Assembly (NCBI GenBank): GCA_040755755.1
Contig: JBFLZW010000031.1
Span: forward strand, 64,561-128,560
Direction: 5' to 3'
DNA from: a bacterium
Lineage (GTDB): Bacteria; SZUA-182; DTGQ01
Length of the DNA: 64,000 bases
This document shows, one piece after another, positions 4,470 to 28,862 of this stretch. The position numbers and the translations under genes were made by a program. Numbering within the stretch: position 1 is the first letter of the stretch; each line of letters begins with the position of its first letter. The notes below the pieces were generated by a model that worked only from the letters and a program-made list of their open reading frames with translations, was not told the origin of the DNA and made no database searches.

Positions 4470-5755
4470 TCCCCTGCTCCGGCAAGGTTACGGCCTATGT
4501 AACGCTGCATCTCCTCTTCTCCTTCAGTATGTATATGGCCTTTGAGATAAAGATTCCAGTGGAGAGCAGCCTGCTCTTTTTTGCCCTGCTTCTCATAGGC
4601 CATGGCCAAGGCAGCCCGGCATTCCGGGTAATCGGGATTGATGGCCAGCGCCTTTTCAAACTCTCCCACAGCATCCGGCATATTTCCCTTCTCGGCATAG
4701 AGAGTCCCCAGATAGTAATGAAGGTCCGGATAATGAGGCTGAGCAGCAATTGCCTTGAGTATCATACTGATACTCTGATCGATCTCTCCCGCTTTCAGGT
4801 AAGTCAGGGCCAGGCTGATCATCGCCTGGACATAGCCGGGATTGATCTTGAGAGATTTGAGAAAGGTTTCGATAGCCCGCTGATGGAGACCCTTTTTAGC
4901 GTAATACATCCCAAGCTGATAGTGAAGGTCTGCATAGTTTGGATTTACCAGTACGGCCTTTTCGTAAAACAGGATGGTATTGGAGATAATGTCGTCGCCT
5001 TCAGTCAGTTGAACCGACGGGCCAAGAAGAGGCCGAGAGACATCAATTGGTGGAGCGGCAAAAACCCTTGAAAATTCTTCGAGTAATTTCTGATTGCAGT
5101 CGGTCTTCCGAAGCTCGCCGCCCCGGTCAGACAGGGAGCATTCCTCGATAAGGGCCATTTTTATCCTGGCTTCCCGGTAATGAGGATTAACTTCGAGCGC
5201 CTTCTGGAATTCCTTCATGGCTGCATTGAACCGGTGGGCAAGACCATGAATCGAACCAAGCAGGTAGTAGAAATCAGCATAGCGGGGATTAATTTCCAGG
5301 GCTTTCCGGTAGCATTCCGCGGCCTCGTTCAGGCGGCGGAGCTTAACATAGGTAAATCCCAGAAGGGAAATAGCCGCCGTATAGCGGGGATTGATTTCCA
5401 GCGCCCTGCGAAGCTCCTGTTCCGCCCGGTCAAATTCCCCAAGAGAGCACAAGCACTGTCCCAGATGGTAGTGAATGTCCGCGTAGTTGCCGCTGATCCG
5501 CGCGGCAGCAGCCAAATGCTCCACTGCCTTGTCGTACATCCCCAGGTGCTCGTATGCAAACCCCAGGTGCAGATAGGATTCCTTCAGATAAAAGAGAGAA
5601 AAGGTATGGAAAATACCTGCTTTTTTAGGCTGGGAAATGATTCTGCTGAATCCCTCGATAGCCTGTTCGAAATTTCCCTGCTCATAATGCCCGAGGGCTT
5701 GAGAATAGATGCTATTCTGGCCAAGAAACGGGAACTTGCCAACGATCTGGTTCAT
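4466..5755 (-). CDS. tetratricopeptide-repeat (TPR) protein
   Basis: 429 aa. It has many 34-aa repeats with recurring ALEINPRYA / ALEVNPHY / ALAINPDYP signatures. It is the first gene of a co-directional run (TPR-DUF1232-patatin-EBP). Confidence 0.85.
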   Translation of the reverse strand: MNQIVGKFPFLGQNSIYSQALGHYEQGNFEQAIEGFSRIISQPKKAGIFHTFSLFYLKESYLHLGFAYEHLGMYDKAVEHLAAAARISGNYADIHYHLGQCLCSLGEFDRAEQELRRALEINPRYTAAISLLGFTYVKLRRLNEAAECYRKALEINPRYADFYYLLGSIHGLAHRFNAAMKEFQKALEVNPHYREARIKMALIEECSLSDRGGELRKTDCNQKLLEEFSRVFAAPPIDVSRPLLGPSVQLTEGDDIISNTILFYEKAVLVNPNYADLHYQLGMYYAKKGLHQRAIETFLKSLKINPGYVQAMISLALTYLKAGEIDQSISMILKAIAAQPHYPDLHYYLGTLYAEKGNMPDAVGEFEKALAINPDYPECRAALAMAYEKQGKKEQAALHWNLYLKGHIHTEGEEEMQRYIGRNLAGAGE

Positions 5756-5928
5756 AGGATGAACTATAGAGTATCACCGGAAAAAAGTCAAGAGGAGGAG
5801 TCGGGATCAGCAAAAAGTTCAATATTCACCCGTTCGTAGTATAAATATGTTGGCCATTATGTCAGCCACCGGATTCATTCTCTGTCATTCCCGCCTCCGC
5901 TGGAATGACGGGATTGGAGGCTTGTGAG

Positions 5929-6131
5929 AGGTATTGGGTGGGGCAAGAGCCTGGAAGTACCTAAGATATTTGGTAGACACAAGCCCCACCCTCCATTCTA
6001 CATTTAAGGTCAAGAAGAGCAATAGCTCAACACCTCTGGGTTTGTATCCCACCGAACACCTTGAATGGAGGGTGGGGCTTGTACCTACCGGACCCCATAT
6101 CCTCCCATGCCCTGTAGCCCCACCGGATACC
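5929..6131. repeat. nested inverted-repeat element built on four alternating GGTGGGGC copies
   Basis: Inner inverted repeat (IR): 5972-5998 pairs with 6063-6089, with a 20-bp perfect core ACAAGCCCCACCCTCCATTC / GAATGGAGGGTGGGGCTTGT. Outer IR: GGTATTGGGTGGGGC (5929-5943) pairs with GCCCCACCGGATACC (6117-6131), 13 of 15 matching. A separate hairpin GTCATTCC/GGAATGAC sits at 5883-5908. Confidence 0.65.
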
Positions 6132-6190
6132 TGATAAATGAGAGCTCCAATTTGCGTTTGACCGAATAGTATCCATAGCGAACCTGCCGC

Positions 6191-6247
6191 TCTCTGTGTC
6201 TCTATGGTGTCCTTATGTCTTTGCCTTTGCCTCTGTCTTTGTCTTTC
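6191..6247. repeat. short tandem repeats (octamer TCTCTGTG-type, then hexamer YCTYTG x5)
   Basis: TCTCTGTG TCTCTATG at 6191-6206, then TCTTTG CCTTTG CCTCTG TCTTTG TCTTTC at 6218-6247. TCTCTGTG is the complement of the CACAGAGA unit found at 25251-25266. Confidence 0.55.
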
Positions 6248-6383
6248 TTGAGTAATTGCTCATTGAAATAGTAATAATAGGGTTGATTTGGCCGAAGAGA
6301 TTTGGTAAGGTAATGTGTAAGCAATTTAAGCTGAAAATGAACATAATTATCATCTTTTTCCGCACTTAAATTGAGTAATTATT

Positions 6384-8375
6384 ATGCCTGATGAAGGAAG
6401 AAAAAGAGTCAGTATCGAGGGGGTCAAGCCGGAAATCGACGGCGGACGTTTTCCAATTAAAAGAGTTGCCGGAGAAAAGGTCATCGTGCAGGCGGATATC
6501 TTCGCCGATGGGCATGACTCGATTTCAGCCAATCTTTTATACCGCAAAGGAGCTGAAACCGACTGGCAGGAGACTCCCCTGCAATTCCTGGTCAATGACC
6601 GGTGGCAGGGAGAATTTGTGGTTGACGGTCCGGCTGTCTATTTCTACACGATCGAAGGCTGGATCGATCACTTCAAAACCTGGCAGAAAGACCTGAGAAA
6701 GAAATTCGAGGCCGGACAGGACTTACGGGTAGATATCCTCATCGGTATCGAACACCTTGAATCGGCCGCGAAGAGGGCTCCGGCGAGCGAAGCCGCAAGG
6801 CTCCTCGAATTTGCCGGTATTTTCAGAAACGCGACGGATGTTCAGACAGTGGTCTTGGCCGCTCTTGGCCGTGAGCTTGGCGAATTGATGGCCCAAAATC
6901 CCGACAAAAAATTGTCTACCCGCTACGGGCGGGAGCTCGAGGTTGTGGTCGATCGAAAGCGCGCTCTGTTCAGCTCCTGGTATGAGCGGTTTCCCCGCAG
7001 TTGTTCCCCGCAGCCTGATCGTCCGGGAACCTTGCGGGATTGTGAGCAGCTCATTCCGGAAATAGCCAAAATGGGCTTTGATGTTTTCTACCTTCCTCCC
7101 ATTCATCCGATATCCGAAACCAGCCGCAAAGGCAGAAACAATTCGCCGAACGCCAGTCCAGGTGATGTCGGCAGCCCCTGGGCTATCGGATCAAAGGAAG
7201 GGGGGCATCGGGCGATTCACCCTCAGCTTGGGACGATGGAGGATTTTGAACGGCTGCTCAGGAGGGCTGAAAGCTTTGGAATAGAGATCGCCATGGATCT
7301 GGCCTTCCAGTGCGGCTGCGACCATCCTTACGTTCAGGAGCACCCTGAGTGGTTCAGATGGCGGCCTGACGGCACGGTTCAGTATGCCGAGAATCCTCCC
7401 AAAAAGTATGAGGATATCCTCCCGCTCAATTTTGAAACAGCCTCCTGGCAGATGCTCTGGGAGGAGCTGAAGGGGGTGGTGCTGTTCTGGATCGGGAAGG
7501 GAGTGCGGATCTTCCGGGTCGATAATCCCCATACCAAACCCTTTCCCTTTTGGGAGTGGCTGATCAGGGAAATTAAAAGGGATTACCCCGATGTTATTTT
7601 CCTGGCCGAGGCTTTCACCCGGCCAAAGCTCATGCAGCGCCTGGCCAAGCTTGGATTTACGCAAAGCTACACCTATTTCACCTGGAGAAACAGCCGGCAT
7701 GAGTTGACCGCCTATCTCGAGGAACTGACTAAGACCGACATGGCCGAGTATTTCAGGCCGAACTTCTGGCCCAACACACCGGACATTCTCCCTGAGCACC
7801 TCCAGTATGGGGGAAGGCCGGCCTTTATCATCAGGCTTGTTCTGGCGGCAACCCTTTCTTCCAGCTATGGCGTCTACGGGCCTGCCTTTGAGCTGTGCGT
7901 GAGCGAGGGCCTGCCAGGCAGGGAAGAGTATGCGAACTCGGAAAAATACGAGATTAGATACTGGGGGGATTTGAGCCGGCAGGCGGGAAACCTGCGGGAT
8001 TATCTGCGCAAGATCAACAGTATCAGGAGGGATAACCCGGCTCTGCAGACTACCCGGAACCTGCAATTTTACGAAACGGAGAACGAGTATCTCATTGCCT
8101 ATGGGAAGGCCACCGATGACCTTTCCAATATCGTCCTGGTGGTGGTCAACCTCGACCCCTTCCATATCCAGTCCGGATGGGTAAAACTTCCCCTCTCCCA
8201 ATTCGGCATAGGCCCGGACCAGCCATACCTGGTTCACGATCTGATCAGCGAGATCAAATATATCTGGTATGGCGAGAGAAATTATATAGAGCTTAATCCC
8301 AATCTTCTTCCTGCACATATTTTGAGAATCAGGAAGAGGCTGAAAAGAGAAACCGACTTCGATTATTTCGTGTGA
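6384..8375 (+). CDS. glgE: alpha-1,4-glucan:maltose-1-phosphate maltosyltransferase
   Basis: 663 aa. The N-terminus IEGVKPEIDGGRFPIKRVAGEKV..ADIFADGHD is characteristic of GlgE. The GH13 core has FRVDNPHTKP and FLAEAFTRP. Confidence 0.9.
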   Translation: MPDEGRKRVSIEGVKPEIDGGRFPIKRVAGEKVIVQADIFADGHDSISANLLYRKGAETDWQETPLQFLVNDRWQGEFVVDGPAVYFYTIEGWIDHFKTWQKDLRKKFEAGQDLRVDILIGIEHLESAAKRAPASEAARLLEFAGIFRNATDVQTVVLAALGRELGELMAQNPDKKLSTRYGRELEVVVDRKRALFSSWYERFPRSCSPQPDRPGTLRDCEQLIPEIAKMGFDVFYLPPIHPISETSRKGRNNSPNASPGDVGSPWAIGSKEGGHRAIHPQLGTMEDFERLLRRAESFGIEIAMDLAFQCGCDHPYVQEHPEWFRWRPDGTVQYAENPPKKYEDILPLNFETASWQMLWEELKGVVLFWIGKGVRIFRVDNPHTKPFPFWEWLIREIKRDYPDVIFLAEAFTRPKLMQRLAKLGFTQSYTYFTWRNSRHELTAYLEELTKTDMAEYFRPNFWPNTPDILPEHLQYGGRPAFIIRLVLAATLSSSYGVYGPAFELCVSEGLPGREEYANSEKYEIRYWGDLSRQAGNLRDYLRKINSIRRDNPALQTTRNLQFYETENEYLIAYGKATDDLSNIVLVVVNLDPFHIQSGWVKLPLSQFGIGPDQPYLVHDLISEIKYIWYGERNYIELNPNLLPAHILRIRKRLKRETDFDYFV

Positions 8376-8384
8376 GGAAGGGAA

Positions 8385-11300
8385 TTGAAATCACGAAAAG
8401 CCGCTTACCTTGAAGAGGATCCCCTCTGGTATAAGGATGCGATCATTTATGAGCTCCATGTAAAGACCTTTTACGATAGCAATAATGACGGCATCGGAGA
8501 TTTTCAGGGACTTACCCAGAAACTCGACCATCTGGCAAACCTTGGAATTACGGCTGTCTGGCTTCTCCCCTTTTATCCATCTCCCCTGAAGGATGATGGC
8601 TATGATATAGCCAATTATTTTGAAGTCCATCCTGATTATGGCACGCTGCGGGACTTCAAGGAATTTCTCAAGGAAGCCCATCGGCGGGGAATACGGGTCA
8701 TTACCGAGCTTGTTTTAAACCACACTTCCGATCAGCATGACTGGTTTCAGAAGGCCCGAAGAGCAAAACCCGGCTCCAGATGGAGAAATTATTATGTCTG
8801 GGATTCACCGGAAAAGTATAAAGATGCCAGAATTATCTTTAAAGACTTCGAAACTTCCAACTGGGCCTGGGACCCTGTAGCCAAGGCTTACTACTGGCAT
8901 CGTTTTTACTCCCATCAGCCGGATCTGAATTACAATCATCCGCATGTCCAGAAAAGCATGCTGCGGGTCATCGACTACTGGTTGAATATGGGTGTGGACG
9001 GGATGCGCCTTGATGCCGTTCCCTACCTTTATGAACGGGAGGGAACCAATTGCGAAAATCTGCCGGAAACCTATGAGTATCTGAAGAAACTGAGGTCGCA
9101 TATCGACAGCAAGTTCAGAGGCAGGATGCTTCTGGCCGAGGCCAACCAGTGGCCGGAAGATGCGGTCAACTATTTCGGAAATGGTGACGAGTGTCATATG
9201 GCCTTTCATTTTCCGCTGATGCCCAGGATGTTCATGGCCATCCGGATGGAAAACCGGTATCCAATCATGGAAATCCTCAATCAGACCCCGGCGATCCCTG
9301 ATGTCTGTCAGTGGGCGCTCTTTTTGAGGAATCACGATGAGCTTACCCTCGAAATGGTGACCGACGAGGAGCGGGACTATATGTACAGGATCTACGCCAA
9401 AGACCGCACGGCACGGATTAACCTCGGCATTCGAAGGCGTCTGGCACCGCTCCTTGGCAATGACAGAAAAAAGATAGAATTGATGAATTTTCTGCTCCTT
9501 TCCCTGCCGGGGACCCCGGTTATCTATTACGGGGATGAAATCGGCATGGGAGACAACTACTATCTGGGAGACAGAAACGGCGTCAGGACCCCGATGCAGT
9601 GGAGTGGAGACAGAAATGCCGGTTTCTCGCGGGCCAATCCCCAGAAACTCTACCTGCCGGTGATCATTGATCCTGAATACCATTATGAAGCCGTCAATGT
9701 GGAAAACCAGGACAGAAGCCAGGCTTCCCTGCTATGGTGGATGAAGCATTTTATCGCCATGAGAAACAATTTCAAGGCCTTTGGCCGGGGAACGATCGAA
9801 TTCCTCTTTCCGGAGAATATGAAGGTTCTGGCCTTTATCCGGCAGTACCAGGATGAGAACATCCTGGTGGTCGTGAACCTGTCACGGCACCCGCAGCTCG
9901 TCGAGCTTGACCTGGCAAAGTATGCCGGGTATGTGCCGGTGGAGGCTTTCAGCAAGAATTCATTCATTGTTATTAAAAATCATCCCTACGCCCTGACCCT
10001 TGGATCGTATGGCTACTACCTGTTTCTGCTCCAGAGGCAGGAGGAGGGGGGGGCAGTCCGGACCCCGAGGATCCTGCCGGAAATCAAGGTAAGCTGGAAG
10101 TGGGAGATGGTTTTGGCCGGAAAAGCGGGGGAGGAGCTTGAGCGTGAAGTATTGCCGCTTTTCCTGAAAAGTGCCCGGTGGTTCGGAGGGAAGACCCGTC
10201 TGGTCCAGCAGGTCAAGATAGCCAGGGATATCCAGCTCGGCAAGGGCAGCCAGGTCACGCATCTTTTGTTCCTCGATGTTCAGTACACGGAAGGGGTGTC
10301 CGACCTCTATCTTCTTCCCCTCTCTTTTGCTCAGGCAGATCAGGCGCAAAAGATCCTGGAGGAGTCGCCTCAGGGGGTGGTGGCCAGGCTCGTGGTCGAT
10401 GAGACGAGGGGAATCATCTATGACGGCATCTATAACGAGAAATTCCGCCAGGATCTTCTGATGATGATTGTCAGACGGTATAAAATCCGGGATAAGGAAG
10501 GGGAGGTGGCTGCCTATCCGGGGAAGGACCTTCGGGGTTCCATCAGGGGAATGCAATTACCTTCCGAATCCCAGGTACTGCGGGGTGAGCAGAGCAACTC
10601 GTCGATTATCTACGGGAACAGGTTTTTTCTCAAGCTGTTCAGGCGTCTTGAGGAGGGAATGAACTCGGAGCTCGAAATGCTGTGGTTCCTGACTGAAAAG
10701 CTATCCTGTCCTCATGTGCCGCCGTTTGCAGGAGTGATCGAGTATCGAAAGCCGCATGCCGAATCGACCATTCTGGCCATTCTTCAAGGGCTTGTGCCCA
10801 ATGCAGGGGATGCCTGGAGCTATACTCTCGATGCTCTGGAGAGGTATTTTACCGGTGTCCTCTCGAAGTCAGGCGAGATTCAGGAGGTCCCGAAGGCTCC
10901 AGCTTCGCTCCTTGAGATAGCTTATCAGGAAATCCCTCCGCTCATGCAGGAGCTCATCTCGGGTTATCTTGAAATGATAAGCCTGCTGGGCACAAGAACC
11001 GGAGAGCTTCACCTTGCTCTGGCCTCGGACCCGGAAGATCCGTTTTTTGCGCTGGAACCCTATTCACTCCTTCACCAGAGGGCCATTTATCAGTCACTGC
11101 AAACCGGGGCTCAGCGGACTTTTCATCTTCTGGAAAAGAGCCTTGCACATCTGCCTGAGGATGAAAGGAACCTGGTGCAGGAGATCCTGAGCTTAAAGAA
11201 ACAGGTGGTCAGTCTGTTCAAAGCCATTCTCCAGAAGAAGATCTCCGGCGGGAAGATCAGGATCCACGGGGATTACCATCTGGGCCAGGTGCTCTACACG

Positions 11301-11714
11301 GGAAAGGACTTTGCGATCATCGATTTTGAAGGCGAGCCGGCCCGGTCGTTGAGCGAGCGGCGATTGAAAAGGTCCCCCCTGCGGGATATAGCCGGTATGC
11401 TCAGATCGCTCCACTATGCAGCCTATACCGCTCTCTTGAAAAAAGCGCTGATCAGGGCTGAAGACAGGGTACAGCTTGAGCCCTGGGCTGACCTGTGGTA
11501 CAAATATACGGGGGGTGCTTTCCTGAGATCGTATCTCGATACGGTCAAAGATGCACCCTTTATCCCCCGGGAAAAGAACGAGCTGCAGATCATGCTCAAT
11601 GCCTTTCTCCTCGATAAGGCAATTTACGAGGTCAGATATGAATTGAACAACCGGCCAGAATGGCTGGCCATTCCCTTGCGGGGGATAAAACACCTGCTGG
11701 AGGAAAACAAGTAG
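8385..11714 (+). CDS. treS: trehalose synthase / maltokinase fusion (TreS-Pep2)
   Basis: 1109 aa. The N-terminal GH13 part ([26 protein letters not shown]-like, [11 protein letters not shown]) fits TreS. The C-terminal kinase-like part ([17 protein letters not shown]) fits maltokinase. TTG start with GAGGAAGGGA upstream. Confidence 0.9.
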   Translation: [1109 protein letters not shown]

Positions 11715-11748
11715 CGGGGAGAAAAAATGAGAAAGGAGAGAGAGGGCG

Positions 11749-13671
11749 ATGGATATCGGGAGCCTTTTGACTGAGAATGATATTTACCTGTTCAGGGAAG
11801 GGAGCCACTTTCGGCTCTATGATAAGCTCGGCTCTCATCTGGTAACCGTTGACGGAGTCAGCGGAGCGTACTTTGCGGTCTGGGCTCCGAATGCCGAGGG
11901 GGTTACGGTGATGGGAAAATTTAATGGCTGGAACCCGGATTCCCATTCTCTGGCCTTGAGAATGGATGGCTCAGGGATCTGGGAGGGCTTTATTCCCGGT
12001 ATCGCTCATGGTGCTCCGTACAAGTATCATATCAGATCACGCTATCGGCATTACCGGGTCGATAAAGGAGACCCTTATGCCTTCCGCTGGGAGCCTGCGC
12101 CGGAAACAGCCTCGGTGGTCTGGGACCTCAAGTATGCATGGGGAGATGGCGAGTGGATGAAAAACCGCGCCGGGGCCAATGCCTTCAATGCACCCATGTC
12201 TATCTACGAGGTGCATCTTGGATCGTGGAGACGGGTTCCGGAAGAGGACGGGCGGTTTCTTACCTACCGGGAAATGGCTGAAAGCCTGGCTGATTACGTC
12301 GAGAAGATGGGTTTTACCCATGTCGAGTTTCTGCCGGTCATGGAGCATCCCTTCTATGGTTCCTGGGGATATCAGATCGTGGGCTTCTTTGCTCCGAGCA
12401 GCAGGTTCGGCACTCCGCAGGACTTCATGGCGATGGTCGATTACCTCCATCAGCGGGGGATAGGAGTTATCCTTGACTGGGTGCCTTCGCATTTTCCCGA
12501 TAATATCCAGGGGCTGGTCTTCTTTGACGGCACTCACCTGTACGAGCATGCAGACCCACGGAAAGGATTTCATCCCGAATGGAAGAGCTATATCTTTAAC
12601 TATGGCCGCCAGGAAGTCAGGGCATTCCTGATCAGTGCCGCACTCTTCTGGTTTGACAAGTATCATATCGACGGTCTCAGGGTGGATGCCGTAGCCTCCA
12701 TGCTCTACCTGGACTATGCGCGCAAATGGGGTGAATGGATCCCGAACGAATTCGGCGGCAAGGAGAATATCGAGGCCATCAGCTTCATCAAACGGCTGAA
12801 CGAGGCCATATACAGCGCATACCCCGATGTTCAGACCATTGCCGAAGAGTCGACCGCCTGGCCCATGGTTTCCCGTCCGACCTATATCGGCGGTCTGGGA
12901 TTTGGTCTGAAGTGGAATATGGGCTGGATGCACGATACCCTGTCCTACTTTTCCAAGGACGCCGTTTACCGCAAGTACCATCAGGGCCAGCTCACGTTCA
13001 GTATCTGGTACGCCTTCTGGGAAAATTTCGTGCTTCCTCTCTCCCACGATGAGGTGGTATACGGGAAAGGCTCGCTGATCGGGAAAATGCCGGGGGACGA
13101 CTGGCAGAAATTCGCCAACCTGCGGCTGTTATTCGGATATATGTATGGTCATCCGGGCAAGAAGCTTCTGTTCATGGGGGGAGAGTTTGCCCAGTGGCGG
13201 GAGTGGAACCACGATCTCAGCCTTGACTGGCACCTCCTCGAATATTTCCCTCATCAGGGAGTGCAAAAGTGGGTCGCGGACTTAAACCGCATGTATGCCA
13301 CTGAACCGGCCCTTCACGAGCTGGACTTTTCCAGTGAAGGATTCGAATGGGTGGATTTTCACGATGCCGAATCGAGCGTCATCAGCTTCATCAGAAAAGG
13401 GAAAACCACCGGCGACCTGATCATGGCAGTCTGCAATTTCACCCCCGTGCCCCGGGAAAACTACCGGCTGGGAGTGCCGTGGAGCGGCATCTGGAAAGAG
13501 ATCCTGAACAGCGATGCCAGGGTCTATGGCGGAAGCGGCCACGGAAACTTTGGCCAGGTTGAGGCCACACCGCTTCCTGCACACGGAAAAAGCTGCTCCC
13601 TATCCCTGCTCCTGCCTCCCCTGGGCATTATTTTCCTCAAGGGTGAGGAGAGTGAGAAATTTCAGTTGTAA
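11749..13671 (+). CDS. glgB: 1,4-alpha-glucan branching enzyme
   Basis: 640 aa with [35 protein letters not shown] and [10 protein letters not shown] motifs. Confidence 0.93.
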
Positions 13672-20582: not shown

Positions 20583-20681
20583 TAGAAACAGTAGGAATAG
20601 GGAATAAAGAAAAGTTTATATGAAGTCATGTTCAAACATTCAACCATTGACTTACAAAAATTAGAAAAAGGAGGATTAAAA

Positions 20682-20897
20682 ATGGTTGATAGCATTGATG
20701 TCCATGATTTACCGGAAGAGGAAGTTAAATTTATTCAGGAATTCACAGAGTTTATAAGACAGAAAGTAAGGAGCAATAAAGTGCAAAAAGGAGAAGAAGG
20801 GATAGAAGAAGAGATAACAGAAGAAAAAGCCCTTACCGCCCATTCTTCAAATGTAATTGGTAAACTTACGAGAAGAGAAATCTATGACTACCTCTAA
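20682..20897 (+). CDS. putative antitoxin of the downstream PIN toxin
   Basis: The ATG at 20682 lies 6 nt after AAAGGAGGA, which I prefer over the listed 20628. The product is 71 aa, acidic, with C-terminus GKLTRREIYDYL. Its stop overlaps the PIN gene start by 14 nt. The family was not recognised. Confidence 0.45.
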   Translation: MVDSIDVHDLPEEEVKFIQEFTEFIRQKVRSNKVQKGEEGIEEEITEEKALTAHSSNVIGKLTRREIYDYL

Positions 20898-21327
20898 TCT
20901 TGCACTCTTGGATAGTAACATTCTCATTTATAGACATCAGGCTCTTTCGGAGTTTCACACCAGGACAAGAGCACTGTTAAGGAAAGGATTTAAAGGTGAT
21001 TTGCTTCTTGGTATCTGTCCTCAGGTTCTCAATGAATTTTATGCGGTAATTACCAATCCCAGACGGGTGACCGATCCTATATCGCCAGCAGAGGCGGTTA
21101 GAGAAATTGAGACATACATTAAAGCTAAAAATATCATAAAAGTATATCCTAAAGAGGATATCTTTGATGTAACTATCCATCTCTTGAAAACCTATAAGAT
21201 CAACGATAGAGATATTTTTGACCTGCAATTAGTGGCTACGATGATCTCTAATGATATTACCTGCCTTTATCCATATAACCAAAATGATTTTTCCAGATTT
21301 AAAGAGATAGAAGTATTAACACCGTAG
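20884..21327 (+). CDS. vapC: PIN-domain ribonuclease toxin (VapC-like)
   Basis: MTTSNLALLDSNILIY carries the first acidic residue, QVLNEFYAV the conserved E, and DRDIFDLQLVATM the third acidic residue. The start at 20884 is preferred over 20857. Confidence 0.8.
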   Translation: MTTSNLALLDSNILIYRHQALSEFHTRTRALLRKGFKGDLLLGICPQVLNEFYAVITNPRRVTDPISPAEAVREIETYIKAKNIIKVYPKEDIFDVTIHLLKTYKINDRDIFDLQLVATMISNDITCLYPYNQNDFSRFKEIEVLTP

Positions 21328-21496: not shown

Positions 21497-23281
21497 CTAA
21501 CAGCTCCACTGCCCGCGGTTTCTGATGGCCTGGAAGCGGTGCCAGATCTCAATGAGGAACCAGTTTTTCAGGATCCATCCGATATTCATCCGCAGCAGGC
21601 GGGTGGGCCATTCGAGCTCTTTTTTCTCACAGATGGTGTTTTCACTCAGCTTGCGGACCCTGGCTTTGAGCTTCTGCATTTGCCGGTCCCGCTCGGCATC
21701 GTCGGATATCAGCATGATGTCGTCGATCTCCTTCATGGCCTTGATGGCCAGTTGCATCCGCTTCTCCGTCCGCTCGGCCTTTTTCGGATTTATCAGGCCA
21801 TAGCGGGCCTTCAGGCGGTTGAGGATCATTCCGGCCTCATAGGAGCTGTCGACGATCTCGCTTCTGGTCATCCACCTGGTTTCGTAGCTCAAGACATATT
21901 TCCAACTGGGGCTTTCCATTGCCCGGCGATGCTCTTCCACCGTGCGGCAGAGGATTTTGTAGCCGAATTTTTCGGGATCCTCGTAGGCCTCGCTCCCCGG
22001 ATCGATAAAGGGGGCATAGGGAGAGATAAAGGGGATCAGCCGTCTGGTATGGCCAAATCGTTCCAGCAACAGGCGGCAGTAGTCAACGGTGTTCAGAACC
22101 GACTGATAGGTCTGCTTTGAAAGGCCGATCATGAAAAAAAGGTCGATGCGCCGGCAGCCAAGGCGCAGCGAGGTATCGATCATCCGCTCCAGTTCCTCGT
22201 TGCCGTAGGGGCGGCCAAAGGTCCTTCGGACCTCTTCATCGTGGGATTCAGGGGACATTTCGATATTGAAGTTTGGCACTGCATCGGCTATCATTTCGAG
22301 GATATCGTCGGCGGGCGGGACAAAGAACTCCACGGCTACGGGATTGCGGATTTTCTGTTTCTTCAGCTCCTTCAGCAGCCGCAGGGCATACTGACGGCCC
22401 GGCTGCATCATGTCGCCGATGATGATGATCGGGGCATTCAGGTTGTTGTCGATGGTCTTCATGTCCCTGGCCAGCAATTCAGGATCCCGGTAGGCGGGCT
22501 TGGGGCGGTTGCAGTTTTTCCGGAAGGCGTAAGCCGCTCCTCCGCAGGTCCGGCAGGTGTGGGTGCAGCCCCGGACATTGAAAACCGCCGTAGCAGGATA
22601 GTTCAGCCAGTTCTGGTAGGGAGTATATCCGTGGAGGTCACGGTATCGCATGACCTTTTTCATGATATGGGAATAATCGATTTTAATGTCGTCAAGATCG
22701 GCCGGTACATTGGTCAGGGGATTGACCTGCACCTTTCCCTGACTGTCCCGCCAGGTGAGGTTGGGAATATGGTCAACCTTGGGGGCAGTGTGGCCATCGG
22801 CTTCCTTGAGCGCCGAGATGAGCTGGCGCAGCGGCTCCTCGGTCGAGTCTCCCCGCATGACGTAGTCGATCTGGGGATAGCAGCGGATCAGTTCTTCATG
22901 GAAGTAGGTGGAAGAAAGCCCTCCGAAGATAACCGGTGTTGCGGGATGGTATTTTTTTACAATCTCAGCCAGAGCAAGACTCCCCTGGACATGGGGCATC
23001 CAGTGCAGGTCGATACCGAAGATGCGGGGATGGAGGTTTTTAATCTCCTCTTCCACATTGTATCGTTTGCTTCGCAGCATCTTCAGGGCGATGTTGATGA
23101 TCCGGACATGGAATCCGAACCGGCTGAGGTATTCGGAAATGCTGGTAAAGCCGATCGGATACATCTCAAAAACCGGTGTCGAAGGAACCAGATCGCTGAT
23201 GGGTCCAAAGAGAATGGCTTTTTCTCGAAAATCATAAACGGTTGGCGGATGAAGCAATATCAAATCTGCTTCCTGTCTCAT
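21497..23281 (-). CDS. B12-binding-domain radical SAM protein (class B rSAM)
   Basis: 594 aa. The N-terminal half is Rossmann-like (DLILLHPP, IFGIDLHWMPH, PVIFGG). The radical SAM motif CTHTCRTC sits at residues 239-246 (nt 22544-22567). The ATG overlaps the selB stop as ATGA. Confidence 0.85.
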   Translation of the reverse strand: MRQEADLILLHPPTVYDFREKAILFGPISDLVPSTPVFEMYPIGFTSISEYLSRFGFHVRIINIALKMLRSKRYNVEEEIKNLHPRIFGIDLHWMPHVQGSLALAEIVKKYHPATPVIFGGLSSTYFHEELIRCYPQIDYVMRGDSTEEPLRQLISALKEADGHTAPKVDHIPNLTWRDSQGKVQVNPLTNVPADLDDIKIDYSHIMKKVMRYRDLHGYTPYQNWLNYPATAVFNVRGCTHTCRTCGGAAYAFRKNCNRPKPAYRDPELLARDMKTIDNNLNAPIIIIGDMMQPGRQYALRLLKELKKQKIRNPVAVEFFVPPADDILEMIADAVPNFNIEMSPESHDEEVRRTFGRPYGNEELERMIDTSLRLGCRRIDLFFMIGLSKQTYQSVLNTVDYCRLLLERFGHTRRLIPFISPYAPFIDPGSEAYEDPEKFGYKILCRTVEEHRRAMESPSWKYVLSYETRWMTRSEIVDSSYEAGMILNRLKARYGLINPKKAERTEKRMQLAIKAMKEIDDIMLISDDAERDRQMQKLKARVRKLSENTICEKKELEWPTRLLRMNIGWILKNWFLIEIWHRFQAIRNRGQWSC

Positions 23282-25209
23282 GGTGCTTCCCTTCTTTTTT
23301 TCAAAATTCTTTTATCCCCCAGTCTCATAGTCAAATTCGAAGTGTCGAAATATTCGAGCAGAGCAATAGCGTACTTTCTGGAAAATCCGAATAAATCCTT
23401 AAACTCGGCTACCGAGATATCAGTTTTGTGCTGAAGATAGCTCTGCAGCTTCTGCTGGATCTGCGACAGGGCCTGCTGATGAAATAACAGTCCTTCTTTC
23501 AGCTTGATCAATGTGCCTTCGTCGATCAGGTGCTGGATCAGTCTGGCAACATCGATGCCGGACGCATGGCAGGTCTGTGCCACTTCATCGAGGCCCGGAG
23601 GCTGATAGCCTGCCTGGCGGCACATGTCCAGGATTTTGGCTTTCTGTTTTTCCTCCTCCGGGGTCAATCTGATCTGGTGAGTAGACAGGCTCAGGGTTTT
23701 CTCCTGGACAATGATTTTCCCCTGCTCCAGCAGCGAGGAAATGATCCGGGCATACAGCCGGGAATCAAGGTCCGGATGCAGGCGGACTTTCAGCTCCTCC
23801 CTGGACATTCCCGATTTCAGGGCAAACCGCTGGTGAAAGCTGGTCAAGGTGTCAATTGCCGCACTCACCAGGCCGTGGAAGACCTCCTGATGAATGACCC
23901 ATTGGTCGAGCGGATCGATGACAACAATCCGCTGCTTTGCCTGCAAATGTCCAAGATGACCGGCTATTCTGTCCTGATCGAGATTGAGGCGGGTTGTCAG
24001 ACGGGCATTGTTGATTCCCTGGATTCCCGCCTGACGGACGATGAATTCAAGGCGCGTCAGATCATCTCCCTCTTCCAGAATACGGAGCCCAGAAAGGACC
24101 GCCGCATCAGACCGCCGGTGCCGGGATGGAAGGTTGTCGATGATGTTTCCGCCTCCGATGGTGATGACCGGAGAATAGGAGCGCACCACAAAGCGGTCTT
24201 TGGCCATCAGGGCCAGGGGGGATTCGAGCTGGAATTGAACCAGGGCCTCCTGACCGGGTGCAAGCTCCTCCTCCTTGTCGAGCAGGACCGCTCTGGCCAG
24301 CACCTCCGATGTTCCGGCATGAAACCGCAGGCGGGCCCGGTTCTTCAGCGGATGAGGAGCGGACGGGAGAAGGGAAATTCGCCCGTCGAGAAGATAGGAG
24401 GCCTGCAAATGGGAAGGCAGTGATACCACATCCCCGCGGGTCAGGTCTGCCTTTTCCACGCCATGCAGGTTAATGGCCACCCGCTGTCCGGCCAGGGCCT
24501 CTTCCACCGACTGGTTATAGACCTGAATTCCCCGGATCTTGGCCTGTTTCCCGCCGGGGAATATTTCAACGGTCAGGCCCTTTTTCAAAGTCCCCGATAA
24601 GAGCGTACCGGTAACTACCGTCCCGAATCCTTTCATGGTGAATATCCGGTCAACCGGCAGCCGGCAGATACCTCCCGGATTCCGGGGCGAAACGCTTTTG
24701 GCCAGTTCTTCAAGGCCCTTGAGCAGAGCCGGGATCCCCTGGCCGGTCGTGGCCGAGACCGGAAAGATGGGGGCGTTTTCCAGGAAGGATTCCCGGACAA
24801 AACTCCTGACATCATCAAGGACCAGCTCCAGCCACTCCGGATCAACCATGTCTGTCTTGGTGACCACCACGATCCCCTTCTGGACCTGGAGCAGACGGCA
24901 GATATCGAAGTGCTCGCTGGTCTGGGGCATGACCCCTTCATCAGCGGCGATAATCAGCATCACCGCATCGATGCCGGTCACTCCGGCCACCATATGCCGC
25001 ACAAACCGCTCATGACCCGGCACATCGACAATGCCAAGGCGCTCTCCATCCGGCAGGTCCAGATGGGCAAATCCCAGCTCGATCGTGATTCCCCGCTCTT
25101 TTTCCTCCTTCAGCCTGTCCGTGTCAATGCCGGTCAAGGCCCGAACCAGGGTCGTTTTCCCATGATCAATGTGCCCGGCGGTCCCCAGGATAATCCACTT
25201 AGAGTCCAT
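23278..25209 (-). CDS. selB: selenocysteine-specific translation elongation factor
   Basis: The G-domain has [21 protein letters not shown] and TKTD. The C-terminal winged-helix region is long. The start at M13 (25209, GGAG 7 nt upstream) is preferred over the listed GTG at 25245. Confidence 0.92.
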
Positions 25210-25244
25210 CCCAAAGCTCCATTCCAAATAAAGAAAAGACACCA

Positions 25245-25276
25245 CACAGACACAGAGACACAGAGAAAAGCACAGG
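25245..25276. repeat. CACAGAGA short tandem repeat inside a hairpin loop (selA-selB spacer)
   Basis: CACAGA CACAGAGA CACAGAGA AAAG CACAGG, flanked by AAAGACACC (25232-25240) and GGTGTCTTT (25285-25293), which can pair. Confidence 0.5.
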
Positions 25277-25307
25277 ATGTCGCGGTGTCTTTATCTTTTT
25301 CAAGGTA

Positions 25308-26750
25308 TCACCTCGCATCGCTTCCCCACTGTTCGAGAATTTGTCTGCCTGCCTGGATAATCTCCGGCACATCCTCATCCTGAATGGTCCGCAGGCTCAA
25401 AAGAAACCGTCCATGATTGATGCGCCCCAGAACAGGAGGCTGATTCAGGCGAAACCGCTCCTCGAGCTGGTTGATTTCTTTTCCGGATGAGGAGATGGCC
25501 ACCGAAAGGGAAGGAATGTTGTGCAGGGGAAAGGAGCCGCCGCCCACCTGGGCATCGTCATCGACCATCTCGATACTGACAGTATCATCATCATGCCGGT
25601 CTGAGGCCAGACCTTCCAGTATCCGTCTCCCCCGCTCCTCAAGCTGCTGACGGGAGGCGGTGATCATGCGCAGGGTGGGAATTTTCTGCAGAACGTCCGG
25701 TTCCCGGTACAGCTTGAGCGTACTCTCAAGAGCGGCCAGGGTCATTTTGTCAGGCCGCACAGCCCTGGTCAGAGGATTTTTCCGCAGAAGTCCGGCATAT
25801 TTTCCCCTGCACAGGATAATCCCTGCCTGCGGCCCGCCCAGGAGCTTATCGCCGCTGAAGGTTACAATCTCTGCCCCCTGCTGAATGATCCGGGAAACAA
25901 GGGGCTCATCCAGCCCGTAAGGGGAAAGGTCGGCCAGCATGCCGCTTCCAAGGTCGCAGATGACGATCAGCCCCCGTTCCTTACCCAGGTGAACCAGTTC
26001 CGGAAGGCTTGTTTCTTCCGTGAAGCCCACAATCCGGAAATTACTGGGGTGTACTTTCAGAATGGCTGCACTGTCTGATGTAATCGCCTGCCGGTAATCC
26101 TCGATGCGGGTTTTATTGGTGGTGCCGACCTCCACCAGCCTGGCCCCTCCCTTTTTCATAACCTCCGGAACCCGGAAAGATCCGCCGATTTCTACCAGCT
26201 CTCCCCGGGAAACGATTACTTCCCGGGATTCGGCCAGGGTATTGAGAACCAGCAGAACCGCAGCCGCATTGTTATTTACCACCAGAGCATCTTCTGCGCC
26301 GGTCAGATGACAGAGCAGCCGGGTGATGGAATCCCCGCGCTTTCCCCTCTTTCCGGTCAGGAGGTCATACTCGAGGTTCGTGAAGCAACTGGCCGCCGTG
26401 GTAACCCTTTCCACCGCCTCACCGGCTAAAACAGCCCGTCCGAGATTGGTATGCAGAATAATCCCCGTAGCATTGATCACTCTTCCCAATTCAGCATACT
26501 GGGTTCTCTGAAAGTACAGGTCCACTTCTTCCAGGACAGAGCTTGCCGAAACCCGGAATTCTTCAAGCTCCTGCGGGCTGGTACAGGATAAAATCCACCC
26601 TCTTTTCCCATCAAGAACCTGCCTGATCCCCTCAACCAGAATCCACCTGGGATACCAGGAAAATCTTTCCCCCCTGGCTGCGGCATGGTGAAGGATTGAT
26701 TCCACCGAAGGTATCGATCTGAGGCAGGCAGTTTGCAATTCACTCAGCAT
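25308..26750 (-). CDS. selA: L-seryl-tRNA(Sec) selenium transferase
   Basis: 480 aa. The N-terminus LRSIPSVESIL is followed by VINATGIILHTNLGRA and a PLP-fold region with SGDKLLGGPQAG (Lys for PLP). Confidence 0.92.
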   Translation of the reverse strand: MLSELQTACLRSIPSVESILHHAAARGERFSWYPRWILVEGIRQVLDGKRGWILSCTSPQELEEFRVSASSVLEEVDLYFQRTQYAELGRVINATGIILHTNLGRAVLAGEAVERVTTAASCFTNLEYDLLTGKRGKRGDSITRLLCHLTGAEDALVVNNNAAAVLLVLNTLAESREVIVSRGELVEIGGSFRVPEVMKKGGARLVEVGTTNKTRIEDYRQAITSDSAAILKVHPSNFRIVGFTEETSLPELVHLGKERGLIVICDLGSGMLADLSPYGLDEPLVSRIIQQGAEIVTFSGDKLLGGPQAGIILCRGKYAGLLRKNPLTRAVRPDKMTLAALESTLKLYREPDVLQKIPTLRMITASRQQLEERGRRILEGLASDRHDDDTVSIEMVDDDAQVGGGSFPLHNIPSLSVAISSSGKEINQLEERFRLNQPPVLGRINHGRFLLSLRTIQDEDVPEIIQAGRQILEQWGSDAR

Positions 26751-26895: not shown

Positions 26896-27963
26896 TCAGG
26901 CATCCGAGCGGCTTTCGCGCTCCGGCGGCATCAAAATATGATGCTTTTTCATGAAATATCCCAGGTTCCTTCGGTCAATTCCCAGCAGCTTGGCTGTTCT
27001 GCTTTTAACCCAATTGGCCCGGTCAAGGGCATTGAGGATTATGATTCTCTCGTACATCAATAACTGGTTTCGTAAATTAAGATCCTTGGCCAGCAGCTTC
27101 CTGTCCATCGGGATGCTTTCAGTCGGAGAGACCGCAGGCTGGTGATTCTCCCTGATATGGGCAGGAAGAATATCCGGATATATTTTATCCCTGCTTTCGA
27201 TAATCATGGCATTCTCGATAACATTTTTCAATTCCCGGATATTGCCCGGCCAGTCATACTTTACGAGCAGTTCCATAGCCTCGCTGGAAACTCCCTTCAC
27301 TTTAGTCTCCATTTCATTGCTGTTATGCTGAATGAAATGCTCCAGCAGGGAAGGGATATCCTCACGCCGATCTCTCAGGGGAGGAAGAAAAATAGTAATG
27401 ACGCTCAGCCGGTAATAGAGGTCTTCGCGGAAGGTTCCCTTTTGAGCGGCATCCTTGAGAATGACATTGGTCGTGGCGATAACCCGGACATCCACCTTAA
27501 TGGTTTTACTGCTTCCCACCGGCACGATCTCGTCTTCCTGGAGCACACGCAACAGCTTGGCCTGTCCGGCCAGCGGCATATTTCCAATTTCATCGAGCAG
27601 TATGGTCCCTTTATTGGCCAGCTCAAACCGGCCCTTTCGATCCGACAGGGCACCGGTATAGGATCCCTTCACATGACCGAACAGTTCACTTTCCAGCAAT
27701 GTCTCGCTTAAAGCCGCGCAGTTCACCTTGATAAAGGGCCGCCCATTCCGTAAACTGTGCTTATAAATCGCATTAGCCACCACTTCCTTGCCTGTTCCGC
27801 TCTCGCCCTGAACCAGTACTGTTGACTTTGTCTTGGCAATGATTCCAATCAGGCGGCAAATCTCTTTGATCTTCTCGCTCTTACCGATGATATCTGCTTG
27901 AACGTAATCCTGACCCATAATCAATACATCCCCCCGATCAATGTGAACAGGTTCCAGTTTCAT
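26896..27963 (-). CDS. sigma-54-dependent activator lacking an N-terminal sensory/receiver domain (PspF-like architecture)
   Basis: 355 aa. Only about 24 aa precede the AAA+ core. It has Walker A GESGTGKE, an L1 loop GSYTGA (a variant of GAFTGA) and Walker B LLDEI. The C-terminal Fis-type HTH is TAKLLGIDRRNLGYFMKK. Confidence 0.88.
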   Translation of the reverse strand: MKLEPVHIDRGDVLIMGQDYVQADIIGKSEKIKEICRLIGIIAKTKSTVLVQGESGTGKEVVANAIYKHSLRNGRPFIKVNCAALSETLLESELFGHVKGSYTGALSDRKGRFELANKGTILLDEIGNMPLAGQAKLLRVLQEDEIVPVGSSKTIKVDVRVIATTNVILKDAAQKGTFREDLYYRLSVITIFLPPLRDRREDIPSLLEHFIQHNSNEMETKVKGVSSEAMELLVKYDWPGNIRELKNVIENAMIIESRDKIYPDILPAHIRENHQPAVSPTESIPMDRKLLAKDLNLRNQLLMYERIIILNALDRANWVKSRTAKLLGIDRRNLGYFMKKHHILMPPERESRSDA

Positions 27964-28304: not shown

Positions 28305-28862
28305 ATGAAGTCGAGTATGGAAGAAATAATTCAACTTGATCCGATCATCCAGCCATCGCCAGACCAATGGTATGGCGTGCATACCCGATCTCGTCATGAG
28401 CAGGCGGTTTACGAGCGACTGACAAGTAAATCCATCCATACCTTTCTCCCCAAAATGGAGGTCTGGAGTGCGCGAAAGGACAGGCAAAAGCGGATTAGAG
28501 TGCCGATGTTTCGGGGGTACCTCTTTATCCGGGCCAACCTGGAAAACCGGCTCTGGCTTACTGTCCTGCAAACTCCGGGAGTCGCCCGGATCATCAGTAG
28601 CAACGGCAAGCCGGTACCTATCCCGGAAAACCAGATTTCCTCGATCCAGACCATTCTGGAAAACGATACGGTCGTCACTCCCTATCCTTATTTGAATATT
28701 GGCGAAAAGGTACGAATTGTGGCCGGCCCCCTTAAGGGGGTGGAAGGAATTCTTCAGCGATTTAAGTCGAATAAACAAAGACTTATTCTCTCGGTAGACC
28801 TTCTTCAGCAGTCAATCTGTGTTGAATTGAATACCATTGAAGTAGAGCCGATTAATTTCTAA
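28305..28862 (+). CDS. NusG-family paralog (UpxY/LoaP/RfaH-like specialised antiterminator)
   Basis: 185 aa. The NGN domain has WYGVHTRSRHEQAVYERL, LPKMEVWS and PMFRGYLFIR. The KOW motif is GEKVRIVAGPLKGVEGILQRF. The start is ambiguous (28305 or 28317). Confidence 0.8.
   Translation: MKSSMEEIIQLDPIIQPSPDQWYGVHTRSRHEQAVYERLTSKSIHTFLPKMEVWSARKDRQKRIRVPMFRGYLFIRANLENRLWLTVLQTPGVARIISSNGKPVPIPENQISSIQTILENDTVVTPYPYLNIGEKVRIVAGPLKGVEGILQRFKSNKQRLILSVDLLQQSICVELNTIEVEPINF

Follow-up and report, generated by a model that had tools for sequence, protein, structure and literature searches.

The closest described system to the locus analysed here is the canonical bacterial selA-selB(-selC) operon of selenocysteine (Sec) decoding. 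In the window, by which we mean the whole 64-kb stretch of DNA that was analysed (contig JBFLZW010000031.1, from a bacterium of the GTDB lineage SZUA-182), selA and selB likewise stood in this order on a single strand, both with equivalog-level scores, and the selB product carried C-terminal winged-helix domains that bind the selenocysteine insertion sequence (SECIS), as in the canonical operon. Unlike the canonical operon, the window contained no selC within 64 kb, and its third, coupled gene encoded a cobalamin-type radical S-adenosylmethionine (rSAM) enzyme of the NCBIfam equivalog family TIGR04190, which is catalogued without an assigned function. The sister lineage, Syntrophales, departed from the canonical operon in another way, with selA apart from selB and overlapped by the rSAM gene, and with selC a few kb downstream. 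The selAB part of the operon is textbook; what is new is a Sec operon with an embedded rSAM gene of putative quinone type, together with a functional prediction for the family. With moderate confidence, we consider the TIGR04190 protein to be a menaquinone-tailoring class B enzyme, probably a C-methyltransferase, whose gene is transcribed together with Sec genes in a single lineage.

Class B methyltransferases of the TsrM, TokK, CysS and Mmp10/MgmA types share with the window protein the N-terminal cobalamin-binding Rossmann domain and an rSAM barrel with a CX3CX2C motif, but the window protein was only 11-15% identical in sequence to TsrM, TokK and CysS and had a C-terminal helical region of its own. 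MenK, MqnK and MenK2 would do a similar job, namely the extra C-methylation of menaquinone in anaerobes that gives methyl- or dimethyl-menaquinone, a functional analogy that we infer. In contrast to these class C, HemN-like enzymes without a cobalamin domain, the window protein had a B12-binding domain and no HemN-like match, and it is not a member of their group. GrsA/GrsB, Gmm, Cgm/Pgm, Ted and HpnP/HpnR are cobalamin-type rSAM enzymes that act on isoprenoid chains, and some TIGR04190 genes adjoined genes for geranylgeranyl reductase (GGR) and polyprenyl synthase. HpnR was only a weak secondary match of TIGR04190 members (41-50 bits, far under the family cutoff). Members of TIGR04190 occur in both bacteria and archaea, and their genes are tied to MenG and mqn genes, not to tetraether or hopanoid genes.

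The ORF map and translations placed selA, selB and the 594-residue open reading frame (ORF) all on the minus strand in the same direction (Table 1), as a sequence-only reading of this DNA had stated. That reading had also seen an ATGA shared by the stop codon of selB and the start codon of the rSAM gene, which was confirmed; the minus strand at this junction reads ...caccATGAgaca... Judged from this overlap, the rSAM gene is translationally coupled to selB, in one operon with the order selA-selB-rSAM. GTP_EFTU, SelB beta-barrel, SelB-wing_2 and SelB-wing_3 domains were assigned to the selB product by Pfam. The longest selB ORF began at GTG 25245, and the true start is probably ATG 25209, which has GGAG ahead of it. 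No co-directional gene followed the rSAM gene, so the operon terminates there. The absence of selC and of any gene with an in-frame TGA nearby, also remarked on earlier, held over the full 64 kb: ARAGORN and Rfam detected a single tRNA-Thr and no tRNA-Sec, and when ORFs interrupted by TGA were sought and annotated with Pfam, none in the window was a convincing selenoprotein gene. A promoter and terminator scan yielded nothing exceeding the shuffled expectation.

The subfamily of the rSAM protein was assigned with a hidden Markov model, the TIGR04190 profile, of which positions 1-529 of 554 were covered by the match. The next-best NCBIfam families scored at most 56 bits, and the weak secondary matches (20-50 bits) included HpnR, HpnJ and a ladderane-type lipid rSAM model. 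The family comprised 378 clusters at 50% identity (E below 1e-30) and occurred in bacteria and archaea, with 37-60% identity across the span. The Rossmann-like N-terminal half recognized in the sequence-only reading was substantiated by the PF02310 match, and its motifs DLILLHPP (residues 6-13), IFGIDLHWMPH (87-97) and PVIFGG (116-121) were all present. Within this B12-binding domain, D91-L-H93-W94...H97..G100 were invariant family-wide. The cluster motif CTHTCRTC was found where it had been placed, and its cysteines C239, C243 and C246 were invariant in 182 of the 182 family sequences aligned. The C-terminal helical region was specific to the family, with a conserved C551...W558-P559 motif. 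The AlphaFold2 model of the protein had a mean predicted local distance difference test (pLDDT) score of 85.8, and its top Foldseek matches in the PDB were TsrM, TokK, CysS, AprD4, MgmA and OxsB (E values about 1e-18 to 1e-13, with 1e-18 to 1e-15 for the best, TsrM, TokK and CysS; template modelling (TM) scores of about 0.5), while the PDB sequence search with the same protein gave no match. By its domains and predicted fold, the window protein is a bona fide class B rSAM enzyme. Two further ideas about the protein were rejected: a hydrophobic-moment scan for an amphipathic membrane anchor in the C-terminal helix was unconvincing, and the rSAM protein is not itself a selenoprotein in relatives, since all 80 of 80 genome-locus copies were uninterrupted ORFs of 571-634 amino acids.

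Relatives were collected by a scan of one genome per species (at least 80 loci, cited here by L numbers) and by a scan of metagenome contigs, and their neighbourhoods were compared with a tblastn screen and an ORF-cluster map. A quick neighbour-joining (NJ) tree of the rSAM proteins contained two groups, a Chloroflexota-type group and one sister clade that was mostly sel-linked, and all sel-linked rSAM proteins fell in this one clade. In the window, L001, L002, L004 and the metagenomic L092, the genes stood in the order selA-selB-rSAM, spaced by -1 to 8 nt; the -1 overlap of the window was repeated in L001 and L002, and the selB-rSAM gaps in L003-L005 were 5-8 nt, with L003 and L005 ending at a contig edge. 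In L006 and L007 the order was selA-selB-lysR-rSAM; the ORF between selB and rSAM was considered as the Syntrophales upstream gene C5 and turned out to be a LysR regulator. L033 carried selB, 619 nt and then rSAM, without selA. In 36 Syntrophales/Syntrophorhabdales genome loci the rSAM gene was followed immediately by selA, as it was in 69 of the 70 informative metagenome contigs, which together give about 105 of 106 informative Syntrophales-type contigs. The rSAM/selA junction took one of three forms: the selA ATG lay 35 nt inside the rSAM gene, the two genes shared an ATGA stop overlap, or they were separated by a 9-nt gap with GGAGG. The only sel-clade locus reported with the linkage lost was L009, in the window's wider clade. 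Between the window clade and the Syntrophales lineages SelA was 44-51% and the rSAM protein 54-62% identical, and all other flanking genes differed, so that only the rSAM-sel pairing was kept, in at least four gene arrangements. The linkage of the rSAM gene to Sec genes is not a local accident but lineage-wide: the adjacency first noticed at selB extends, in other gene orders, from the window clade through Syntrophales and Syntrophorhabdales and is not confined to close relatives.

The Syntrophales region contained further Sec features. Directly upstream of the rSAM gene, at a gap of at most 3 nt, lay a gene for a UshA-like metallophosphoesterase with a signal peptide. In 19 of 19 loci a TGA interrupted the reading frame of this gene at the conserved site PCPT* (motif NGEIDPCPT*G), and the post-TGA part alone scored 198 bits with the NCBIfam 'UshA-like (seleno)protein' model; the protein is probably an NF041198-type selenoprotein. 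Upstream of the UshA-like, rSAM and selA genes, 8-12 Syntrophales loci carried a Tat-signal fdnG with an in-frame TGA (EHQARI*HSP), fdnH and fdhE. tRNA-Sec was encoded on the same strand 2-7 kb downstream of rSAM-selA, beyond rluD and pgeF (and yggU). Since rluD, pgeF, yggU and folK share this cluster, unrelated genes can persist in it. Here selA and selC were parted by the 23S rRNA pseudouridine synthase gene and selB lay elsewhere, and in Syntrophorhabdales-type loci a tmRNA was found at the distance corresponding to tRNA-Sec. The Syntrophales upstream gene C5 was also compared with the PGA_cap domain that is fused to one rSAM protein, and the similarity was not significant (E 0.016 over 63 amino acids).

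Outside the sel-linked clade, the rSAM gene was linked or fused to menaquinone genes in four other phyla. Within 7-8 kb no sel genes were found in any of 33 Chloroflexota-type loci, nor in 14 loci that belong to Actinomycetota, archaea or Bipolaricaulota or are unassigned (L081-L091, L172-L174). In Altiarchaeales (L172), the rSAM gene (606 bits) lay inside a complete futalosine-pathway menaquinone cluster with the order UbiA/MqnP-like, PF02621, MqnE, MqnC, PF02621, TIGR03701, UbiE-like, rSAM and a geranylgeranyl-reductase-family gene, the gaps flanking the rSAM gene being 25 and 3 nt. MqnE (463 bits, cutoff 435), MqnC (460 bits, cutoff 428) and the menaquinone (MK) decarboxylase TIGR03701 (650 bits, cutoff 496) all passed their cutoffs, the two PF02621 genes represented MqnA/D, and the UbiE-like gene, at 137 bits, was under its cutoff of 158. 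In Nezhaarchaeales (L173), genes for polyprenyl synthase (IspB), GGR and the rSAM protein (683 bits) stood together, with a 3-nt gap, and adjoined nuo genes. The unfused rSAM genes of Actinomycetota were followed, with an overlap or a spacing of a few nt, by MenG/UbiE (TIGR01934, 248 bits, cutoff 158) and then by a hydrolase gene resembling 5'-deoxyadenosine/aminofutalosine deaminases; Rex, multihaem cytochrome and ResB/CcsA genes lay upstream. The deaminase would fit the removal of the by-products 5'-deoxyadenosine and S-adenosylhomocysteine, or the futalosine pathway. Among the representatives at 50% identity, two carried a fused UbiE/MenG methyltransferase, and a follow-up search raised the rSAM::UbiE fusions to nine, 48-100% identical to each other, from metagenome-assembled genomes of Actinomycetota/Coriobacteriia type and bearing the NCBI name TIGR04190. 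In Bipolaricaulota (L174), polyprenyl synthase (IspB) and UbiE genes were divergent from the rSAM gene, which was followed by Rex.

Genes of quinone-linked complexes also recurred beside family members. Polyprenyl synthase, Rnf and fumarate reductase genes lay near the rSAM gene in L090, and sdhCDAB in L089; directly upstream of the TIGR04190 gene of L089, beside sdhCDAB, was a second, different B12-rSAM gene with a DUF4070 domain (L089:6403-7740). In seven loci of the window's wider clade (L003, L004, L006-L010), genes for a multihaem cytochrome c, a cytochrome b and a Rieske protein, which constitute a quinol-oxidising complex, were convergent with the rSAM gene. The Chloroflexota-type copies had MoxR upstream and, in some loci, DUF58 downstream. 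Other fusions, rSAM::TatC in two proteins on short contigs and rSAM::PGA_cap on one Anaerolineae-like contig, are possible artefacts and were given no weight.

Because relatives of the enzyme sit within menaquinone gene clusters of other phyla, menaquinone tailoring is favoured over selenium handling. A shared function across the clades is suggested because the Chloroflexota, Actinomycetota and archaeal copies all exceeded the equivalog cutoff (598-683 bits), 60 positions of the 182-sequence alignment were conserved across all groups, and only 15 positions, all with conservative changes (I/V/L, S/T/A and similar), marked off the sel-linked clade; apparently, the sel-linked copies are not a different enzyme from the other family members. 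Menaquinone would then be the substrate and C-methylation the reaction, and the window enzyme would do the same job as its relatives. As in the class B enzymes of known structure, the SAM that binds the CX3CX2C cluster would methylate cob(I)alamin, and the methyl group would pass from cobalamin to a carbon of the menaquinone ring or of the GGR-saturated prenyl tail, either after a 5'-deoxyadenosyl radical has abstracted a hydrogen or, in the manner of TsrM, by polar attack on an sp2 carbon of the ring. In the window lineage and in Syntrophales/Syntrophorhabdales, the gene would have been wired into Sec operons and kept there through several rearrangements, and this placement may lead to its expression together with the Sec machinery. 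Thermoplasma acidophilum, from which Ta0216 comes, produces thermoplasmaquinone, a methylated menaquinone, and is not known to have a Sec system. Thermoplasmaquinone fits the proposed menaquinone function, but class C MqnK-type enzymes could also explain it.

Several observations weigh against menaquinone tailoring. No menaquinone gene was found in the 64-kb window, the sel-linked and Chloroflexota loci all had none within about 8 kb, and the known menaquinone ring methylases MenK, MqnK and MenK2 are class C, not class B. For each context outside the sel-linked clade there are one to five loci per phylum, and the function of the family is predicted from sequence and gene context. The sel linkage, with its overlapping frames, is far too persistent to dismiss, and in Syntrophales the rSAM gene lies between the probable selenoprotein gene and selA with tRNA-Sec downstream. 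Moreover, many Chloroflexota are without quinone pathways (PMC13386864), and quinones may be scarce or absent in some of the taxa that carry the family.

The Sec linkage might be explained by physiological coupling, in which menaquinone is tailored, for example to a lower-potential methylated form, and the gene is kept with the Sec genes for co-expression with Sec-dependent formate dehydrogenases or hydrogenases of the same anaerobic or syntrophic electron chain. The formate dehydrogenase genes upstream in the 8-12 Syntrophales loci, the survival of the linkage through at least four rearrangements while the remaining flanks differ between both lineages, and the recurrence of quinone-linked complexes (bc-type, Sdh/Frd, Nuo, Rnf) beside family members are in line with such coupling. 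We nevertheless regard it as unlikely, given that selA and selB serve every selenoprotein and not just the quinone-linked ones, that the window operon has no fdh gene nearby, and that rluD and pgeF, which have no obvious link to this chain, ride along in the same Syntrophales cluster.

Instead of menaquinone, the enzyme could act on another isoprenoid or membrane lipid, such as a polyprenyl carrier or the chains of membrane-spanning or ether lipids, comparable to the substrates of Grs, Gmm, Cgm, Ted or the hopanoid methylases. B12-rSAM enzymes carry out archaeal lipid tailoring (PMC11214058; bioRxiv 10.1101/2025.10.20.683597). GGR and polyprenyl synthase are neighbours in L172 and L173, some loci contain glycosyltransferase, Wzy_C, Bac_transf and PMT_2 genes, and the secondary NCBIfam matches mentioned above are to lipid enzymes. 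This assignment seems quite improbable in view of the fusion partner, which is specifically UbiE/MenG, and of the dedicated mqn cluster that holds the Altiarchaeales copy; a single family occurs in archaea and in bacteria, which differ in their bulk lipids but have menaquinone in common.

More doubtful still is a direct role in Sec or selenium metabolism, by which the enzyme of the Syntrophales-related super-lineage would be a new accessory factor of Sec decoding that acts on something common to SelA and SelB or on the selenium supply, for example in tRNA(Sec) modification or organoselenium processing. Such a factor would explain the alternate operon partners selB (by ATGA or at gaps of 5-8 nt in the window clade) and selA, as well as the position between a selenoprotein gene and selA; the pairing of selB with rSAM in L033 without selA, the tRNA-Sec in the same Syntrophales cluster and the frequency of RNA modification among rSAM enzymes also speak for it. 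On the other side, members of the same equivalog family are present in lineages without nearby sel genes, nothing in the alignment pointed to neofunctionalisation of the sel-linked clade, radical chemistry is unnecessary for selenium methylation, and L009 has lost the linkage. Among archaea, Sec is known only from Methanococcales, Methanopyrus and some Asgard lineages, and its absence is therefore expected in Altiarchaeales, Nezhaarchaeales and Thermoplasma; we know of no class B rSAM enzyme that acts on nucleic acid. The sequence-only reading had offered a selenium-related substrate, co-regulation with Sec decoding or a passenger gene; the substrate is unsupported, as the family lacks nearby sel genes in Chloroflexota, Actinomycetota, Bipolaricaulota and archaea, and the choice between co-regulation and a passenger survives. 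By the same reading, a Sec link would be refuted if the subfamily were equally common in genomes lacking the Sec trait or mapped to a known unrelated function; the loci without sel genes in the 7-8 kb scanned and the menaquinone-gene context outside Chloroflexota largely point that way.

Least credible is that the gene is a pure historical passenger, with one ancestral adjacency kept by inertia and the order rotated by tandem duplication and loss: a single origin would suffice for a single sel-linked NJ clade, housekeeping genes (rluD, pgeF, yggU, folK) share the Syntrophales cluster and L009 has lost the linkage, but the pairing and overlapping frames were kept despite the divergence of SelA and the rSAM protein and the change of all other flanks.

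The surroundings of the window operon are included in Table 1. The sigma-54 activator gene 145 nt upstream of selA encoded neither a receiver nor a sensor domain. Its product was 82-94% identical in L001, L002 and L004, more conserved than SelA, SelB and the rSAM protein; this synteny was limited to the closest relatives, and the gene was not beside selA in Syntrophales loci. A sigma-54 promoter before selA was rejected, as GG-N10-GC was absent from the 145-nt gap between the activator gene and selA. Downstream of the rSAM gene, the 89-residue ORF had no Pfam family and is presumed to encode a VapB antitoxin from its position only; this ORF and the VapC-type gene occupy the site of the cytochrome bc-type genes of L003-L010. 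A 185-residue NusG-family paralogue was encoded between the sigma-54 activator gene and tsaD (28305-28862, plus strand). The other window genes were housekeeping genes (GlgE/TreS-Mak/GlgB, Lon, NadC, TsaD, FtsEX, transketolase, HrcA, SufBD, PTS/HPrK). Among them, the GlgE maltosyltransferase, a TreS-maltokinase fusion and GlgB were encoded consecutively at 6384-13671 on the plus strand and make up the GlgE alpha-glucan pathway; one TGA, taken as an ordinary stop, stood between the first and second of these ORFs, which shared a frame.

Table 1. Positions of the operon, its domains and its neighbours in the window, and of selected features at related loci (given as locus:position)
Feature	Position	Strand	Evidence or remark
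selA, L-seryl-tRNA(Sec) selenium transferase, 480 aa	25308..26750	-	TIGR00474 563.7 bits (cutoff 267.9); Pfam SelA 486.6 bits
selB, Sec-specific elongation factor	23278..25245	-	TIGR00475 383.4 bits (cutoff 242.25)
ATGA shared by selB stop and rSAM start	23278..23281	-	ATG 23281-23279, TGA 23280-23278
Class B (cobalamin-type) rSAM enzyme, 594 aa, TIGR04190 (B12_SAM_Ta0216)	21497..23281	-	682.8 bits (cutoff 500)
B12-binding Rossmann-like domain, residues 36-148	22838..23176	-	PF02310 55.6 bits (cutoff 32.1)
Radical SAM core, residues 237-401	22079..22573	-	PF04055 43 bits (cutoff 29.5)
CX3CX2C [4Fe-4S] motif CTHTCRTC, residues 239-246 (C239, C243, C246)	22544..22567	-	translation
Sigma-54 activator, no receiver domain, upstream neighbour	26896..27963	-	Pfam Sigma54_activat 232.7 bits
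Convergent 89-aa ORF and VapC PIN toxin gene, downstream boundary	20628..21327	+	PIN domain; TIGR00028 71.1 bits, below cutoff 73.6
UshA-like gene	L011-L041, e.g. L023:~6950-7986, L041:~5450-6584		conserved in-frame TGA
fdnG-type formate dehydrogenase alpha subunit	L013, L016, L017, L023, L026, L028, L032, L041, e.g. L023:1702-5505		in-frame TGA, then Fe-S subunit and FdhE
tRNA-Sec	L011-L041, e.g. L011:9879-9973, L023:13567-13660
Cytochrome/Rieske genes	L004:9786-11102, L007:11119-12222, L006:6958-7419		convergent with rSAM; also in sel-less L009
Other rSAM fusions	P0123/L088:117-2561, P0495, P0129/L091:7761-10943		TatC or PGA_cap

The literature search retrieved no paper mentioning TIGR04190 or Ta0216, and none tying a B12-rSAM enzyme to Sec genes, in agreement with the earlier statement that no such role in Sec or selenium metabolism had been described, or a class B rSAM enzyme to menaquinone biosynthesis. 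The cyanobacterial B12-rSAM protein Slr0320 has been speculated to methylate a quinone (PMC8065906). In a 2026 survey, methylmenaquinone (MMK) synthesis was ascribed to menK, menK2 and mqnK, and the enzymes for several rare quinones were listed as unknown (PMC13386864). If the menaquinone assignment is true, a widespread and unnamed family of cobalamin-dependent rSAM enzymes (about 380 clusters at 50% identity) gains a concrete prediction, the tailoring of menaquinone or its prenyl tail; TIGR04190 would be the class B counterpart of the class C MenK/MqnK methylases and could account for one of these rare quinones. That an entire anaerobic lineage has an rSAM gene with overlapping frames in its Sec operon would be either a warning about guilt by association or a hint that quinone tailoring is managed together with Sec-dependent formate and hydrogen metabolism in syntrophs.

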